A stretch of DNA of 33,522 bases from a bacterium (GCA_021781865.1 JAJXVZ010000002.1:1-33522); one strand, 5' to 3'; shown: positions 28,488 through 33,522, counted from the first letter of the stretch. Made by a program: numbers and translations. The notes: generated by a model not told the origin, from the letters alone.

Positions 28488-28509
28488 ATCATTGCAGGCA
28501 ATGATTTTT
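28488..28509. terminator. Hairpin at the boundary between the recombinase ORF and the PEBP gene
   Basis: The hairpin is ATCATTG-cagg-CAATGAT, with TTTTT on the plus strand. On the minus strand it directly follows the recombinase stop (28508-28510). Confidence 0.3.
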
Positions 28510-30079
28510 AAGTTAAGATATCAGAATCGTCCATTCGGGCGACACGATTCCGGGATAGCTCAATGGTAGAGCAGCGCCCTGTTAAGGCGTTGGTTGCAGG
28601 TTCGAGTCCTGCTCCCGGAGCAGCAATAAAACTCACCTCATTTTCTGAGAAATTTTGGCGTGCGACGCGGAGCGTCGCCCAATGTTCTACGGGGGTTTGT
28701 TCAACTTTTCGATTTCGCAAAGTCAGGTTCGAGCCGAAGATTTTTTGGAGGGAGGATTTTTTGGAGGGGAGGTCGAAGTTTTTGGCTATTTCGTCCAGCA
28801 TTGAAGCGTGGTTTACCCACTCCTGCATGGGTTCGAGCCACGCACAGGCGTTCTGTTCAAGACGGGCTATCTGCTCCTCGAACGACTTACGATCCGATAT
28901 GAGAGCGCGACGGCGTTCAAGGTAGTCGGCACGCTCGATGTCTTGGGCTATGTAGAGGTCGGTAAGGCGGTCGAGTTGGCGGGAGATGTCCTGTACTTTC
29001 TCACGCAATTCTTGAACGAACGCTTCGGTTTCGCGCGAGGTCTTATCCTTGTCCTCGTCCATAAGTCGGCGTAGCTCCTCCGCCCACAATGGCGGGAGAT
29101 CGTAGCTGGAAAGTATCGTATTGAGTTGAGGCGATAGTGCTTCCTCTCTGACATACGGCTCGGCACAGACGCCTTTCTTCTTCGTACAGCGATAGTAGGT
29201 ATGGCCTTTCTGTATCTCGCCCGTAATCATGCAACCGCACTCACCGCAACGTAGAAGCCCGCACAGGGCTTTGGGTTGGGTGGTAGCTTTCTGCGGGTGG
29301 CCTCGCTCTATAATTACTTTCTGCACTTTGTCGAACAGACGTTTTTCGATGATGGGAGTATGCCGTCCTTCGTGCAATTCTCCGCCGTAGGTAAAGAGGC
29401 CGCAGTAAAAGGAGTTGGTAAGGATAAACCGCACGCGGTCTTTGTGGAAAGGTAAGCCGCCGAAACTCTTGACGCCATTCTCAAACATAAATGTAGAGAT
29501 GTCTTCAAGACGGCGGTCGCCTTTGGCGTATAGCAGAAAGGCGGCTCGTATCACTTTCGATTTCTTCCGGTCTATAACAATCGTCTTAGACCGCACATCG
29601 TTTAGGTAGCCGACAGGCGCACTGCTCGGAAACTCGCCACGCTTAACTTTGAGACGTAGGCCACGCTTCACGTTTGCGCTTAGGTCGCGGATAAATTGGT
29701 TAGCCATGCCGAACTCGACGGACATCATCAGGACGTTATCGGTCGGGTAGTGGTTGCGGTCGTGGGTGCGGATATGCTTGATCGTCCCCTCCTGTAGAAA
29801 CCAACTGATCTGCCCGCCGTCCACTGGATTGCGTGCTAAGCGATCTAACTTCCAACAGACAATGCCCTGTGCCTCGCCGCGCTGTATGCGCTTCATCATG
29901 TCGTTGAACACAGGACGGCCGGGCATCTTGGCGGTACGCTTCTCCACAAACTCGGCGGCAACTTCTAAACCTTCCTGTTTTGCTAAAACCCGAAGCTCGG
30001 CTAGCTGGGCTTCAATAGAGAGGACTTGTTTGTCCTCGACATCGGTGGATTTGCGGGCGTAGAGGAAGTAGCTGAGCAT
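28508..30079 (-). CDS. Large serine recombinase
   Basis: I placed the start at the Met at 30079 (MLSYFLYARKSTDVEDKQVLSIEAQ), which gives the resolvase catalytic-Ser motif. It also has a recombinase domain, a Cys-rich zinc ribbon (CGLLRCGECGCMITGE...YYRCTKKKGVC) and a long coiled-coil. The last ~36 codons are antisense to tRNA-Asn. Confidence 0.9.
   Translation of the reverse strand: MLSYFLYARKSTDVEDKQVLSIEAQLAELRVLAKQEGLEVAAEFVEKRTAKMPGRPVFNDMMKRIQRGEAQGIVCWKLDRLARNPVDGGQISWFLQEGTIKHIRTHDRNHYPTDNVLMMSVEFGMANQFIRDLSANVKRGLRLKVKRGEFPSSAPVGYLNDVRSKTIVIDRKKSKVIRAAFLLYAKGDRRLEDISTFMFENGVKSFGGLPFHKDRVRFILTNSFYCGLFTYGGELHEGRHTPIIEKRLFDKVQKVIIERGHPQKATTQPKALCGLLRCGECGCMITGEIQKGHTYYRCTKKKGVCAEPYVREEALSPQLNTILSSYDLPPLWAEELRRLMDEDKDKTSRETEAFVQELREKVQDISRQLDRLTDLYIAQDIERADYLERRRALISDRKSFEEQIARLEQNACAWLEPMQEWVNHASMLDEIAKNFDLPSKKSSLQKIFGSNLTLRNRKVEQTPVEHWATLRVARQNFSENEVSFIAAPGAGLEPATNALTGRCSTIELSRNRVARMDDSDILT
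28549..28620 (+). tRNA. tRNA-Asn (anticodon GUU)
   Basis: Hand-folded cloverleaf. The parts are acceptor TCCGGGA/TCCCGGA, D arm GCTC-AATGGTA-GAGC, anticodon stem GCGCC/GGCGT with loop CTGTTAA, variable loop TGGTT, T arm GCAGG-TTCGAGT-CCTGC, and discriminator G. CCA is not encoded. Confidence 0.9.
28619..28778. repeat. Left copy of a ~160-bp inverted repeat (IR-L), starting at the last 2 nt of tRNA-Asn
   Basis: It is the reverse complement of 33232-33400. Bases 28619-28730 are identical to rc(33289-33400), and 28743-28778 are identical to rc(33232-33267). A 12-nt versus 21-nt variable patch lies between these blocks. Confidence 0.9.
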
Positions 30080-30097
30080 GTTTCCATAATAGCACAA

Positions 30098-30171
30098 ACA
30101 GGACAAAACAGGACAAGTGATTGTGGATGACAAAAACGGACAAAAGTGTATCCTTACAGGTGATGGACAAA
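30098..30171. promoter_or_regulatory. Divergent control region with iterated GGACAA(A) motifs
   Basis: GGACAA(A/G) occurs at 30101, 30111, 30138 and 30165, with a GATGACAAAA variant at 30126. On the minus strand, TATTAT (30091-30086) lies 6 nt upstream of the recombinase ATG. Confidence 0.35.
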
Positions 30172-30339
30172 GATAGACTCCTTACTGCACAGGAAGTCGC
30201 AAAGAAATTACGTGTGAGTGAACGCTCAGTTATGCGCTACATCAAAGCAAAGAAACTTCGTGCCACAAAAATCGGTCAGTGGCGTATCAAAGAAATTGAT
30301 ATCATTAAATTCCTCGGAGCCTATAGTAATAAAAGATAA
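30127..30339 (+). CDS. Excisionase-type (HTH_17/MerR-like) DNA-binding protein
   Basis: LLTAQEVAKKLRVSERSVMRYIKAKKLRATKIGQWRIKEIDIIKFL matches the excisionase-family HTH pattern. The start could be TTG 30121, ATG 30127 or ATG 30163. Confidence 0.75.
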   Translation: MTKTDKSVSLQVMDKDRLLTAQEVAKKLRVSERSVMRYIKAKKLRATKIGQWRIKEIDIIKFLGAYSNKR

Positions 30340-30344
30340 TCGTT

Positions 30345-31415
30345 ATGTCTCCGACAAAAATAAAAGTTATTGATTTGTTCTGTGGTATAGGAGGTCTGAC
30401 CCACGGACTCATTAAAGAAGGTCTTGATGTTGTCGCTGGCATTGACAATGATTCAAGTTGCAAATTCGGCTATGAATACAATAATAAGGCTCAGTTCATT
30501 GATATAGATATTCTTGAAGTTACAGCCGATAGGATCAACCAACTTTTTGGATCAGAGAAAGGCACGATTCGTGTCCTTGCGGGCTGTGCTCCTTGCCAAC
30601 CTTTTTCAAAACTGAATCTTAACGCTATTACAGAAAAACAATTAGAACCGTTAGGAAAGTTTGCCCAATTGATTGCTGAGACTCAGCCGGATATTGTCTC
30701 AATGGAAAACGTGAGTGATCTTGCCATTAAAAATAAATATCCGGCGTTCGAGAGTTTTTTAAAAGTTCTTACTGATAATAATTATCACTACAAGTACGAG
30801 GTTGTTGATGTCTCAGAGTTTGGCGTACCACAGAAAAGACGGAGACTCGTTTTACTTGCGTCAAAATTTGGTGAAATTCAATTAATAAAAAGAACTCACA
30901 AAGATAAGCGGGTTACTGTCCGAGACGTTATTAAACATTTAGAGCCAATAAAAAACGGTGAGGTAAGCAAGAGAGACCCACTACATCGATCAAGGAAACT
31001 TGCCCCGATTAACCTAAAAAGGATAAAAGCCACTCCGCATGATGGAGGTAGTTCTAATAGTTGGAGTAAGGATTTAATCTTAGATTGTCATAAAAAAAAG
31101 TCGGGTAAAACATACCGTCACACTGTTTATGGACGTATGAGTTGGGATCAACCTGCTCCAACTATGACGACACAGTGTGTAGGATTAGGAAATGGCAGAT
31201 ATGGTCACCCTACGCAAAATCGGGCGATAAGCTTGAGAGAAGCGGCAATATTTCAGACATTCCCAAAGGATTATCAATTCCTTCCATCCTCGGAGCCAAT
31301 TGTAATAAATAAAGTTGCAAAATTTATCGGGAATGCTGTACCGGTAAGACTCGGATCAGTTATTGGCAAGAGTATAAAGGAACACTTGAGCAAAAATTAT
31401 GAAGGAAGAACATAA
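30345..31415 (+). CDS. DNA (cytosine-5)-methyltransferase
   Basis: C5-MTase motifs are I DLFCGIGG, IV PCQPFS, VI MENV, VIII QKRRRLVLLAS, IX RAISLREAAIFQTFP and X GNAVPV. Confidence 0.92.
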   Translation: MSPTKIKVIDLFCGIGGLTHGLIKEGLDVVAGIDNDSSCKFGYEYNNKAQFIDIDILEVTADRINQLFGSEKGTIRVLAGCAPCQPFSKLNLNAITEKQLEPLGKFAQLIAETQPDIVSMENVSDLAIKNKYPAFESFLKVLTDNNYHYKYEVVDVSEFGVPQKRRRLVLLASKFGEIQLIKRTHKDKRVTVRDVIKHLEPIKNGEVSKRDPLHRSRKLAPINLKRIKATPHDGGSSNSWSKDLILDCHKKKSGKTYRHTVYGRMSWDQPAPTMTTQCVGLGNGRYGHPTQNRAISLREAAIFQTFPKDYQFLPSSEPIVINKVAKFIGNAVPVRLGSVIGKSIKEHLSKNYEGRT

Positions 31416-33132
31416 GCCTTTTGAATTTGAATTCTCTCTTGAAGTTCTCAATCATTTAGGCAGGGGTCTATATAGAAGTTTTGCAACTGTTATTGCGGAG
31501 GCAGTTTCAAATGCCTGGGACGCAGAAGCGAAAGAAGTTAAAATCACTCTCGACAAGACAGGTCTTATTGTTGAAGACAACGGAAAAGGCATGGATGCTA
31601 ACGATTTTAGATGTAAGTTCCTAAAAGTTGGATACTCCAGAAGGCAGGACGAAACCAATAAATCAAAGCGAAATGTAATTGGTAGGAAGGGCATCGGAAA
31701 GTTAGCAATGCTGTCTATTTCTGAAAAGGTAACTATCGTCTCAAAGAAACAAGAATCAGAAATAACCGGTGGAAAAATTAACAACCCTAAATTAGATAAA
31801 GAGATTAGAAAGGACGGCAAGTATGCTCTCGACAACTTATCAAACCAAGAGAAGACCAAACTTTTTGGCAAGCCTAATACTAAGAAGACAGGTACGAAAA
31901 TACTTTTTGAGAAAATTAAAACCAACCTCAATAGCGAAGATATGATTCGCAAATATCTTGCAACTCAATTCAATTTTATTTTTAGCATAAAAAAGGGCGA
32001 CTCGTTTACTATCAAAGTAAATAATAAACCCGTTAGCATTAAGGACTTGCAAGAGTTGAATGACAACACTCAGTTCATATGGTACGTCGGCAAAAAAGAT
32101 AAAAGGTTTGGAGATAGATTTAAGAGTCTTGATAAGGAAAAGGTTATTAAAAATACAAACTTTGTGTTTGAGGGTAAGACCATTGAGATTAAAGGCTTTA
32201 TCGCTTCCGTGAAAAGGTCAGGCCAGTTGCTTCTTAGGGGTTCGAACGGTGATTTCAAAGCAAGTGTTAATCTCTTCACAAACGGCAGATTAAGACAGGA
32301 AAGTCTTTTTGAGGAGATCGCAAAGAAAACACTTACGGAGGAATATCTTTATGGCGAAATTCACGTTGATGGTTTTGAGGACAGTGAAAACGATCGATTC
32401 ACGAGTTCACGCGAAGGGATAATCAAAGATGATCCTCTTTACCAAAAGTTTCTAGAGGAACTTGAAAAAGTGTTAGTAGTTATAATTCAAGACTGGACTC
32501 CCTGGAGAAAGGAACTCAAACAAGATGGGGATATTGATCAAGACTCAAGACCTGGTTATGAAGTAAGGATGGAAGAGAGTCGTAACCGGCGTGAAAAAGA
32601 CTTCAGAGATAAAATAAATGAGAATATAAGTGATAAAGCTACTAAAGACAGTTTAAAGGAGAAGCTAAAATCTCTTTCATATAAAAATACCTTGATTTAT
32701 CAAGATTTGTTTATTTTGGAGAATATTCTTAGAGAATATATTAAACTTAAAAAAGTAGAAGAAAATTACTTTGACACTAAAATAGCCGACGAAAAGAATA
32801 TTATTGATCGTATTAAGCAAGTCAGAGGAGACAGAAGGGCAGACGAAGCAACGCATGCGCTGAAAGGGAAAATTGTAAAAGAAGAACACTTTCTAAACTA
32901 TGCAGATTTGTATGATCTTGGGGAAATAATCGATCTTTATTTGGAAAAGAATAAAAAGAACCCAACTCCTAAGAAATATAAGAAAGAATTGTCTGCTGAC
33001 GCTAAAGAAATCAATCCAGTTAGAAATCCAATCATGCATACAAACGAGATAACCGATCATGTATTGGTATGGGATAAGATTAAAAACCTCATTGATTATA
33101 TTGAAAGGATAAAGGATAAGAAAGTAAAATAA
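31399..33132 (+). CDS. GHKL (HATPase_c_3/MORC-like) ATPase with a C-terminal HEPN-like domain
   Basis: Bergerat-fold motifs are EAVSNAWDA (31498-31524), DNGKGM (31576-31593) and GRKGIGKLA. The C-terminal helical domain has ILENILREYI, LYDLGEIIDLY and VRNPIMH (Rx4H, 33022-33039). It overlaps the MTase gene by 17 nt. Confidence 0.75.
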   Translation: MKEEHKPFEFEFSLEVLNHLGRGLYRSFATVIAEAVSNAWDAEAKEVKITLDKTGLIVEDNGKGMDANDFRCKFLKVGYSRRQDETNKSKRNVIGRKGIGKLAMLSISEKVTIVSKKQESEITGGKINNPKLDKEIRKDGKYALDNLSNQEKTKLFGKPNTKKTGTKILFEKIKTNLNSEDMIRKYLATQFNFIFSIKKGDSFTIKVNNKPVSIKDLQELNDNTQFIWYVGKKDKRFGDRFKSLDKEKVIKNTNFVFEGKTIEIKGFIASVKRSGQLLLRGSNGDFKASVNLFTNGRLRQESLFEEIAKKTLTEEYLYGEIHVDGFEDSENDRFTSSREGIIKDDPLYQKFLEELEKVLVVIIQDWTPWRKELKQDGDIDQDSRPGYEVRMEESRNRREKDFRDKINENISDKATKDSLKEKLKSLSYKNTLIYQDLFILENILREYIKLKKVEENYFDTKIADEKNIIDRIKQVRGDRRADEATHALKGKIVKEEHFLNYADLYDLGEIIDLYLEKNKKNPTPKKYKKELSADAKEINPVRNPIMHTNEITDHVLVWDKIKNLIDYIERIKDKKVK

Positions 33133-33190
33133 GAATCAGCATCGGGAGTTTTGTCGATCTGAAAGATGGCGAAAAATAAATTGCCTATAA

Positions 33191-33451
33191 CACGCGCACG
33201 GGAAGGGCGGGGCAAGTGTTATATCTAGCGTCTTCGACCTCCCCTCCAAAAAATCCTCCCTCCAAAAGTCTTCGGCTTTCGTATTTTTGAACCTGACTTT
33301 GCGAAATCGAAAAGTTGAACAAACCCCCGTAGAACATTGGGCGACGCTCCGCGTCGCACGCCAAAATTTCTCAGAAAATGAGGTGAGTTTTATTGCTGCT
33401 TGTTTGTACGACCCAATACGAACGCATTTTACCCGAAACGGAGGCCTCTAG
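33191..33451 (+). other. ATG-less in-frame copy of the recombinase C-terminal coding segment with a different tail
   Basis: The frame is open from 33191 to TAG at 33449-33451. It translates to FDLPSKKSSLQKSSAFVFLNLTLRNRKVEQTPVEHWATLRVARQNFSENEVSFIAA plus CLYDPIRTHFTRNGGL. The recombinase has ...QKIFGSNLTLRNRK...FIAA plus a tRNA-antisense tail. Confidence 0.6.
33232..33400. repeat. Right copy of the ~160-bp inverted repeat (IR-R)
   Basis: It is the reverse complement of 28619-28778, with one 9-nt frame-preserving indel patch at 33268-33288. Confidence 0.9.
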
Positions 33452-33522
33452 GGTAGTCATTCGGGGGTAGTTTACCCCTACATTCACCCCTACATTCGAC
33501 CTATACCGGAATGTAGGGGTAG

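Follow-up and report, generated by a model that had tools for sequence, protein, structure and literature searches.

A tRNA-Asn-proximal serine integrase element encodes a C5 methyltransferase and a BbrUII/HgiDII-type GHKL ATPase with a probable HEPN-like C-terminal domain

The closest described relatives of the gene pair studied here are Type II restriction-modification (R-M) systems of the BbrUII/HgiDII kind (NCBIfam NF050001), SalI isoschizomers (GTCGAC) that include a C5 cytosine DNA methyltransferase (MTase). A GHKL N-terminal domain was recognized in R.HgiDII by Orlowski and Bujnicki (2008, PMC2441816), who left its C-terminal domain unassigned and reported a GHKL-'Hypoth_Ymh' fusion in R.NmeAIP. 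The paraMORC GHKL ATPases of R-M operons were defined by Iyer et al. (2008, PMC2292703), and Anantharaman et al. (2013, PMC3710099) showed Ymh to be a HEPN domain and proposed the paraMORC-HEPN proteins of R-M neighbourhoods as analogues of PrrC and RloC. The subject of the present analysis is the right-hand part of a 33,522-nt stretch of bacterial DNA (GCA_021781865.1 JAJXVZ010000002.1:1-33522; the whole stretch is referred to below as the window), which contains the tRNA-proximal part of an integrated mobile element of a host that probably belongs to Patescibacteria. Beside a large serine recombinase, this element encodes a C5 MTase and a 577-aa GHKL ATPase. Since the prediction of GHKL-HEPN fusions in R-M neighbourhoods dates back to 2008 and 2013, the cassette formed by the two genes is a variant of a predicted kind and not an unknown system.

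Results of our analysis make it rather probable that this tRNA-integrated element carries a methylation-gated cassette, in which an ATPase module of the HgiDII type is combined with an HEPN-like RNase effector instead of a DNA nuclease. The complete gene inventory of an initial annotation of the window (recombinase, a small helix-turn-helix (HTH) gene, C5 MTase, and the 577-aa GHKL gene, with a 17-nt overlap of the last two) was recovered at the same coordinates by a list of open reading frames (ORFs), Pfam, and ARAGORN. The features of the cassette are as follows:

30345..31415, plus strand: C5 cytosine DNA methyltransferase (PF00145, E 2.6e-56, full length)
31399..33132, plus strand: GHKL ATPase protein of 577 aa (HATPase_c_3, 2e-22; 17-nt overlap with the MTase gene)
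33022..33039, plus strand: codons of the Rx4H motif R542-N-P-I-M-H547, a putative HEPN catalytic site (invariant in relatives)

More than 2600 homologues of the 577-aa protein (about 570-585 aa, E <= 1e-5), originating from Paceibacterota, Roizmanbacteria, Cytophagaceae, Robiginitomaculum, and other sources, are named only 'ATP-binding protein'. Their GHKL motifs are conserved (N38, DxGxG 60-64, GRKGIGK 95-101, and T166), and among 38 sequences the Bergerat-fold residues E34, N38, D60, M65, the G95-K101 stretch, and T166 are invariant, while G62 and G64 are present in at least 90%. Residues 8-417 of the window protein match positions 1-405 of the 659-position model NF050001, which represents the BbrUII/HgiDII restriction enzymes, with an E value of 8e-87 and a score of 292 bits, which misses the curated cutoff of 550 bits, and two REase_II models of PADLOC match residues 8-377. 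A bona fide member of the family, encoded by a Burkholderia glumae plasmid, matches the same model over positions 1-659 with 650 bits; it can be aligned with the window protein by BLASTP over residues 8-382 only (34% identity), and no similarity is seen between the C-terminal parts. The extra C-terminal domain of the Burkholderia protein, ...RLDITYRASSGRHVVVELKRP (...RLDITY...VVVELKRP), gives weak matches to SduA_C and HSDR_N, which the C-terminus of the window protein does not, and judging from its sequence it may be read as a PD-(D/E)xK nuclease. The partial alignments to NF050001 and to the Burkholderia protein therefore indicate that the window family kept the ATPase and the middle module but exchanged the nuclease domain. 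Thus, the window pair shares with the BbrUII/HgiDII systems an adjacent, co-oriented C5 MTase gene and a GHKL and middle module that is 34% identical over about 380 residues, whereas the C-terminal PD-(D/E)xK-like domain of about 250 aa is replaced by an all-alpha domain of about 170 aa with the Rx4H motif. With Foldseek, about 420 columns could be aligned to the N+M part of Hsp90/TRAP1 and to GyrB 43K at E of about 1e-10, but the template modelling (TM) score was about 0.3 and the predicted local distance difference test (pLDDT) score of the model was 66. The initial annotation knew of no named defence system with exactly this gene set; its novelty was overstated there, as follows from the NF050001 and REase_II matches and from the GHKL-HEPN fusions already on record (PMC2441816, PMC3710099).

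In the 577-aa protein, the C-terminal domain spans residues ~410-577, and its AlphaFold2 model is all-alpha (pLDDT 81.6). R542 and H547, which form the Rx4H motif, are invariant in 38 close relatives as well as in an alignment of 15 C-terminal domains with members down to 20% identity, in which an upstream E-N-x2-R is also invariant. Members of this alignment include relatives with a full-length identity of 34-37% to the window protein, which come from Nitrospirales, a gammaproteobacterium, and a Paracoccus plasmid; the motif is also present in 34-37% identical proteins of L020-L023 and L123 (L-numbers denote other loci or contigs compared with the window). When the 15 domains were scanned separately, six of them matched HEPN_Swt1, weakly, and no other family recurred. 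The C-terminus is matched as well by the PADLOC candidate PDC-M34B (6e-8), while the Ymh HEPN model gave no match to the window protein's C-terminal domain. Taken together, the domain is probably an HEPN domain closest to the Swt1-like ones, which is not an established assignment. The GHKL-HEPN label of the initial annotation holds with respect to the invariant Rx4H motif, while the HEPN assignment stays below family thresholds. Fusions of the R.NmeAIP type likewise have a GHKL part and a C-terminal HEPN-type domain, lie beside a DNA methylase, and were predicted to be an RNA-targeting arm of R-M. They differ in carrying Ymh (PF09509), whereas the GHKL module of the window protein is of the HgiDII lineage, and in both cases the functions are computational predictions.

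The linkage of the two cassette genes is conserved. In 18 of 18 loci from species-representative genomes, which span Patescibacteria, Anaerolineaceae, Alphaproteobacteria, Nitrospirota, Bdellovibrionales, Gammaproteobacteria, Fimbriimonas, and Bifidobacterium, a C5 MTase gene lies directly upstream of the GHKL gene, in the same orientation, and ends at its start; MTase genes are paired with genes of the GHKL family also on plasmids of Paracoccus, Haloplanus, Halobaculum, Rhizobium, and Burkholderia. This tabulation of gene neighbourhoods bears out the R-M-like nature of the pair that had been suggested initially, and since the C5 MTase is upstream in all 18 relatives, the cassette belongs to a known R-M lineage as a variant with a swapped domain. 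Between the window MTase and the partner MTase of the bona fide Burkholderia enzyme, the full-length identity is 45%. The window MTase gene and the GHKL gene have a GC content of 35-40%, as compared to 48-52% in the host DNA and the recombinase gene. A 91%-identical cassette, which has no recombinase gene next to it, lies beside a Type I R-M system, and hence the MTase-GHKL pair can be regarded as autonomous. A search with PADLOC, which had been proposed along with the initial annotation, returned the REase_II and generic MTase models, while the signature proteins of MADS, Mza, DISARM, and Druantia were not found, apart from a weak mad1 HTH match (9e-6) and a weak match to the MzaB ATPase domain (1e-5).

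Two related loci deserve a separate mention. In L022 (2416-7593), a single MTase gene precedes an HgiDII-like gene of the nuclease type, which contains internal stops, and after another 0.9 kb there is an HEPN-type paralogue, an arrangement that may be a snapshot of effector replacement. In L123 (Paracoccus plasmid pBM153), the pair of MTase and GHKL-Rx4H genes diverges from a gene of a small, 179-aa serine recombinase and adjoins a dcm-vsr pair. The presence of serine recombinases beside defence genes is a reported pattern for small recombinases (PMC13552941), and the L123 arrangement fits it.

Based on the gene content, homology, conserved linkage, domain swap, and att structure of the element (for the latter see below), the following mode of action can be proposed. 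The large serine recombinase inserted the element at the 3' end of tRNA-Asn, and the C5 MTase would mark host DNA at a specific site, thereby protecting self. The GHKL ATPase with the middle module is predicted to sense unmethylated target DNA, so that unmethylated foreign DNA or the loss of the methylase would trigger an ATP-dependent activation of the RNase. The Rx4H domain would be the effector, acting probably on RNA, and the toxic outcome would be the arrest of the cell or the invader, by abortive infection or addiction, and not the cutting of DNA. Such logic resembles that of PrrC-EcoprrI and RloC, in which a latent HEPN RNase is coupled to R-M as a suicide or second-line response (PMC3710099). 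Nevertheless, PrrC and RloC use ABC-type ATPase domains and Type I systems and show no sequence relation to the window pair, and thus the likeness is a functional analogy only. If the HEPN-type effector is real, the sensor of a classical Type II R-M system can be rewired from DNA cutting to an RNA-level response of the abortive-infection type; an RNA-level response of R-M was predicted by comparative genomics in 2013, and the cassette, with its more than 2600 homologues, is widespread.

Several observations weigh against an RNA-directed effector. All HEPN_Swt1 matches are below the 27.5-bit cutoff of this family (E 0.05-0.06 for the window protein and 0.0056 for the best of its relatives), and a Foldseek comparison of the C-terminal model to PDB gave no match with E < 1, the top one being to the HEPN toxin 7ae9_A (E 2.4, TM score of about 0.2); a sequence search of PDB with the C-terminal profile gave nothing. 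Palindrome avoidance in the host DNA of the window, by which the MTase site was to be guessed, was not detectable and is uninformative, and we found no paper in which a GHKL-HEPN protein paired with an MTase was tested. Since the characterised relatives HgiDII and BbrUII cut DNA, cleavage of DNA by means of an unrecognised site is possible. The cassette would in this case be an ordinary DNA-cleaving Type II R-M system with a divergent isoschizomer-type restriction enzyme, in which the Rx4H domain or the conserved middle region acts as a DNase of unrecognised type. We consider this unlikely. The homology of residues 8-417 to BbrUII/HgiDII, the REase_II matches, and the 45% identity of the MTase to the partner of a bona fide member would be accounted for, and for R.HgiDII itself the C-terminal domain had no assignment for a long time (PMC2441816); yet the PD-(D/E)xK-like domain of true members is gone, a non-homologous all-alpha domain with the HEPN signature and recurrent weak HEPN_Swt1 matches stands in its place, and 292 bits compare poorly with a cutoff of 550.

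A main role of the cassette in addiction, i.e., in stabilising the element by post-segregational killing when the loss of the element dilutes methylation and frees the toxin, seems quite improbable to us. R-M systems are known to behave as addiction modules, the cassette is invariably carried by mobile DNA or adjoins it (recombinase elements, plasmids, defence islands), and its GC content is foreign, all of which agrees with such a role. However, addiction is compatible with defence, and the location of the cassette also beside a Type I R-M system and GmrSD is a usual anti-phage signature. There is very little to be said for the GHKL protein being a repair accessory of the methylase rather than a toxin, a MutL-like protein concerned, like Vsr, with T:G mismatches that arise by deamination of 5-methylcytosine: the weak MutL matches of the ATPase domain and the dcm-vsr pair nearby on the Paracoccus plasmid would speak for it, but the similarity to MutL does not extend beyond the Bergerat fold, restriction enzymes are the nearest relatives, and the HEPN-like domain has no obvious role in repair.

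Less expected than the cassette is the architecture of the integrase part of the element. Its features in the window are the following:

28549..28621, plus strand: tRNA-Asn(GTT) (ARAGORN), the 3' end of which is the attB-derived arm of attL
28616..28623: attL crossover region, CGGAGC/AGC, at the junction of the 3' ends of the tRNA and the recombinase gene (identity with L001 from 28616, start of the repeat at 28619, divergence of host variants at 28621-28623)
28619..28778, minus strand: left arm R of an inverted repeat, a P'-type arm, with the last ~53 family-conserved codons of the recombinase (FDLPSKKSSLQKIFGSNLTL...SFIAA) (repeat search, protein conservation)
28508..30133, minus strand: large serine recombinase (integrase) ORF, likely start at 30079 (Pfam Resolvase, Recombinase, Zn_ribbon_recom)
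30121..30339, plus strand: small HTH_17/excisionase-type gene (Pfam HTH_17, PF12728, 3e-14; TIGR01764 excise)
33232..33400, plus strand: right arm R' of the repeat, in which the 3' end of the recombinase gene is present a second time, in inverted orientation (repeat search, sequence)
33401..33451, plus strand: tail CLYDPIRTHFTRNGGL with its stop, the P-type arm of an intact internal attP, with the tRNA T-arm mimic ACGAAC at 33419-33424
33452..33522, plus strand: start of a conserved non-coding module, X, that runs past the window end (sequence)

The recombinase and cassette genes are enclosed by a 160-nt inverted repeat (28619-28778 vs. 33232-33400), which was missed in the initial annotation. 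Two perfect blocks, of 112 nt and 36 nt, make up the repeat, and the net difference in length between the arms is 9 nt, in frame. In the right arm, R', the reading frame continues into the tail CLYDPIRTHFTRNGGL and ends with a stop codon at 33451. The conserved tail follows R' in many other loci and in L012, from a Patescibacteria genome, in which the recombinase is only 52% identical and the tRNA is a different one (Ala) but the layout is the same; the tail of L012, SLYESARTHFTKNC and a stop, differs from that of the window by synonymous changes. In many elements, R' departs from the copy in the gene by a similar T-rich insertion of ~9-10 nt, located exactly inside the GGCTCGAACC motif, a tRNA T-arm look-alike in the FGSN codons (window 33268-33288 vs. 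28731-42); it gives ...FxFLN... or a stop. Apart from this insertion the arms are identical, and it is seen again in elements as divergent as L042, L054, L061, L090, L098, and L101. The X module follows the tail also in L038, L044, L051, L053, and L075, in the order TTTACC, two direct words of ~11 nt, a spacer, an inverted word, and GGTAG, sometimes in tandem. In the window the word is CCCCTACATTC, with two direct copies (33475-33485 and 33487-33497) and an inverted one (33509-19). Do the words represent binding sites or an origin? No Rfam family was matched by the non-coding X region, and no terminator was predicted in the right arm.

A complete recombinase 3' end is present in 69 related loci (67 of 80 GTDB loci, the window, and L012). 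A tRNA gene (Gln, Asn, Leu, Tyr, Val, Thr, Arg, Glu, Gly, Ile, Lys, or Ala) abuts the recombinase 3' end in 50 of them, and an inverted copy of this end, 44-219 nt long and 88-100% identical, is found 1.4-10 kb upstream in 59, mostly from Patescibacteria. Three junctions could be distinguished in six loci (L060, L076, L082, L092, L102, and L111) and, less cleanly, in two more: R with the tRNA (attL), R' with the tail (internal and inverted), and host DNA with the tail, the last being a third copy that is direct relative to the recombinase. The identity between the third and the internal copy starts exactly where that between attL and the internal copy stops, with an overlap of 3-7 nt (GCTC, GAG, TGGTGA, GTGA, GTGCG). 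Because the three junctions share this exact core, they can be attributed to recombination between attP and attB, and from these attL/attP/attR triads it follows that each element has two modules with an attP (R-core-tail-X), inverted relative to each other; integration uses up one of them, and the other is kept intact. In the tail arm, a TCGAAC motif lies 18 nt from the core, i.e., 4 nt further out than the T-arm of the tRNA (14 nt). A shift of about 4 nt separates the half-sites of attP from those of attB in serine integrases, as known from work on the LI/A118 integrase. The window shows attL and the internal attP only; between them lies segment A, with the recombinase, HTH, MTase, and GHKL genes, whereas segment B and attR are beyond the window end. 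An 8-nt direct repeat, TCCACAAC, considered as the far boundary of the L012 element, is probably due to chance, as the neighbouring arm does not have the P-type geometry.

The window element with its repeat is present in five independent assemblies (the window, L001, L002, L003, and L007). This, together with the same structure in L012, with its divergent recombinase and other tRNA, and in 59 of 69 loci, and with the exact att triads, led us to reject an assembly artefact, or a meaningless decayed remnant, as the origin of the inverted repeat and the right-hand tail; we hold this possibility to be hardly credible. What could be taken to suggest it is the position of several contig ends in or close to the repeat: L004 covers exactly 28731-33288, and four assemblies (the window, L001, L003, and L007) end within 17 nt of each other in the X module, at 33519-33536.

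The yeast 2-micron plasmid encodes the recombinase FLP and has FRT sites inside inverted repeats that separate two unique segments. In Myxococcus phage Mx8, attP is located inside the int gene, and integration changes the C-terminus of Int. The window element is like the former in having recombinase sites inside long inverted repeats separating two unique segments, and like the latter in having attP inside the integrase gene, so that integration replaces the integrase C-terminus. Both known systems, however, use tyrosine recombinases and belong to unrelated hosts. As a tentative proposal, which we rate as possible rather than probable, the family may consist of serine-integrase elements built like a bacterial '2-micron', with two inverted modules (integrase 3' end, core, tRNA-mimicking arm), one of them spent at a tRNA 3' end; the spare attP would flip the integrase-bearing segment or allow re-integration or amplification, and the cargo of such an element in the window would be an R-M sensor rewired to an RNase. 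Inversion of segment A would restore or remove the natural C-terminal tail of the recombinase. The initial annotation had suggested that the unit could be flipped by the recombinase, of which we found no evidence: all five assemblies that cover the right arm and its flank show one orientation, and the tail is contiguous with the recombinase in only one of 80 GTDB loci and in ~9 of the top 120 proteins, none of which could be linked to a flipped copy. In the literature we found no description of a second, inverted attP architecture, including any serine-integrase element with a second, inverted, intact attP whose arm copies the integrase 3' end. The element otherwise resembles tRNA-targeted islands, including tycheposons (bioRxiv 10.1101/2020.12.28.424599), and phages or integrative and conjugative elements with large serine integrases, in its insertion at a tRNA 3' end, tandem accumulation at one tRNA, and defence cargo; most tycheposons, however, use tyrosine recombinases, while the window element uses a serine one. 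The conserved second attP and the precise natural attP/attB pairs obtained for many tRNA-targeting serine integrases bear both on the build-up of islands in small Patescibacteria genomes and on genome-engineering tools based on such integrases.

The recombinase retains the invariant catalytic YxRKST motif and the active-site Ser, as well as the Resolvase, Recombinase, and zinc-ribbon domains, and has more than 6400 homologues, mostly in Patescibacteria. These features and the att structure support the initial assignment of the region to a tRNA-adjacent integrative element of a serine recombinase. The adjacency of its gene to tRNA-Asn was also correct, but the part of the gene next to the tRNA is its 3' end and not its beginning: past the family-conserved ...SFIAA, the ORF runs antisense through the tRNA. 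The integrated gene reads into the tRNA because the crossover lies inside its own 3' end. Of the top 120 homologues, ~90% have an antisense-tRNA peptide (G[FL]EP...) at the C-terminus, and in ~9 the tail is contiguous with the protein. An invariant Gly-Ser-Asn of the recombinase (FGSN codons, window ~28728-28740) is almost always encoded, in 81 recombinase genes, by GGCTCGAAC(C), a look-alike of the tRNA T-arm; such uniform coding implies a constraint on synonymous positions and therefore at the DNA level.

The HTH gene, which diverges from the recombinase gene, had been counted in the defence operon. An HTH_17 homologue, 53% identical, adjoins the recombinase in L038, where the cargo is a diversity-generating retroelement, and in L012, L013, L125, and the contig of P0149 this place is taken by an XRE-type HTH gene, while no HTH gene is present where the MTase-GHKL pair occurs without this recombinase. 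Since a small HTH gene recurs beside the recombinase with unrelated cargo and is absent from the recombinase-free pair, it belongs to the recombinase backbone and not to the defence pair; by its sequence, its product is a candidate directionality factor or regulator. The cargo of the sibling elements L037, L038, L039, and L125 comprises a diversity-generating retroelement (reverse transcriptase, bAvd, and target gene), an EcoRI-type methylase with GmrSD-HNH, zinc-ribbon/RDD proteins, and HEPN_AbiU2; in L125, all three tail copies are present in one chromosome. A 915-aa ORF of L027 (14894-17641) fuses a large serine recombinase to tRNA-methyltransferase (MnmA) domains, which is most simply explained by an element integrated inside mnmA; the island around this ORF also contains a Type I R-M system and the MTase-GHKL cassette.

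The 3' end of tRNA-Asn serves as a hotspot of insertion, as the same host shows different downstream sequences, four including that of the window, in different assemblies. Host sequence that is 99.7-100% identical diverges after 28621-28623 into three other continuations, one of which is another recombinase of the same family (the compared loci are L028, L029, L030, and L036, with a tandem CCGGAG scar in L030). L001 contains the identical element, but its left flank consists of NYN and Hsp70-like genes, and at the left junction there is a P-type arm that codes for a degenerate tail (MLVDVRT and a stop) with the core CGGAGC. We read this junction as attR of a second element inserted between the tRNA and the window-type element; a search for it in reference genomes gave zero matches. 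The alternative that the L001 left flank represents attP of the free form of the element was rejected, since the degenerate tail and the presence of the other recombinase at tRNA-Asn in the same sample favour attR of a second element.

In contrast to the region 28508-33451 assumed initially, the island reaches beyond 33451 and extends past the window. The identical 4.9 kb are found on other contigs, where they are followed by a hairpin and by genes of Replic_Relax and Mrr_N-GmrSD. L002 (3244-6410) continues the right end of the window with a long perfect hairpin (L002 3373-3463) upstream of the Replic_Relax gene, followed by the Mrr_N-GmrSD Type IV restriction gene; this stretch looks like a plasmid-like module with a second defence gene. 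Replic_Relax is not a general, constant part of the elements, as it was found in only 2 of 80 other recombinase loci, in L066 in a different orientation. The neighbour element of L001 (1-7217) contains an NYN-domain gene, a gene of an 837-aa Hsp70-like protein with a weak C-terminal match to HEPN_AbiV (E 0.0099), and Yip1 and AAA genes, and may hold another defence cargo.

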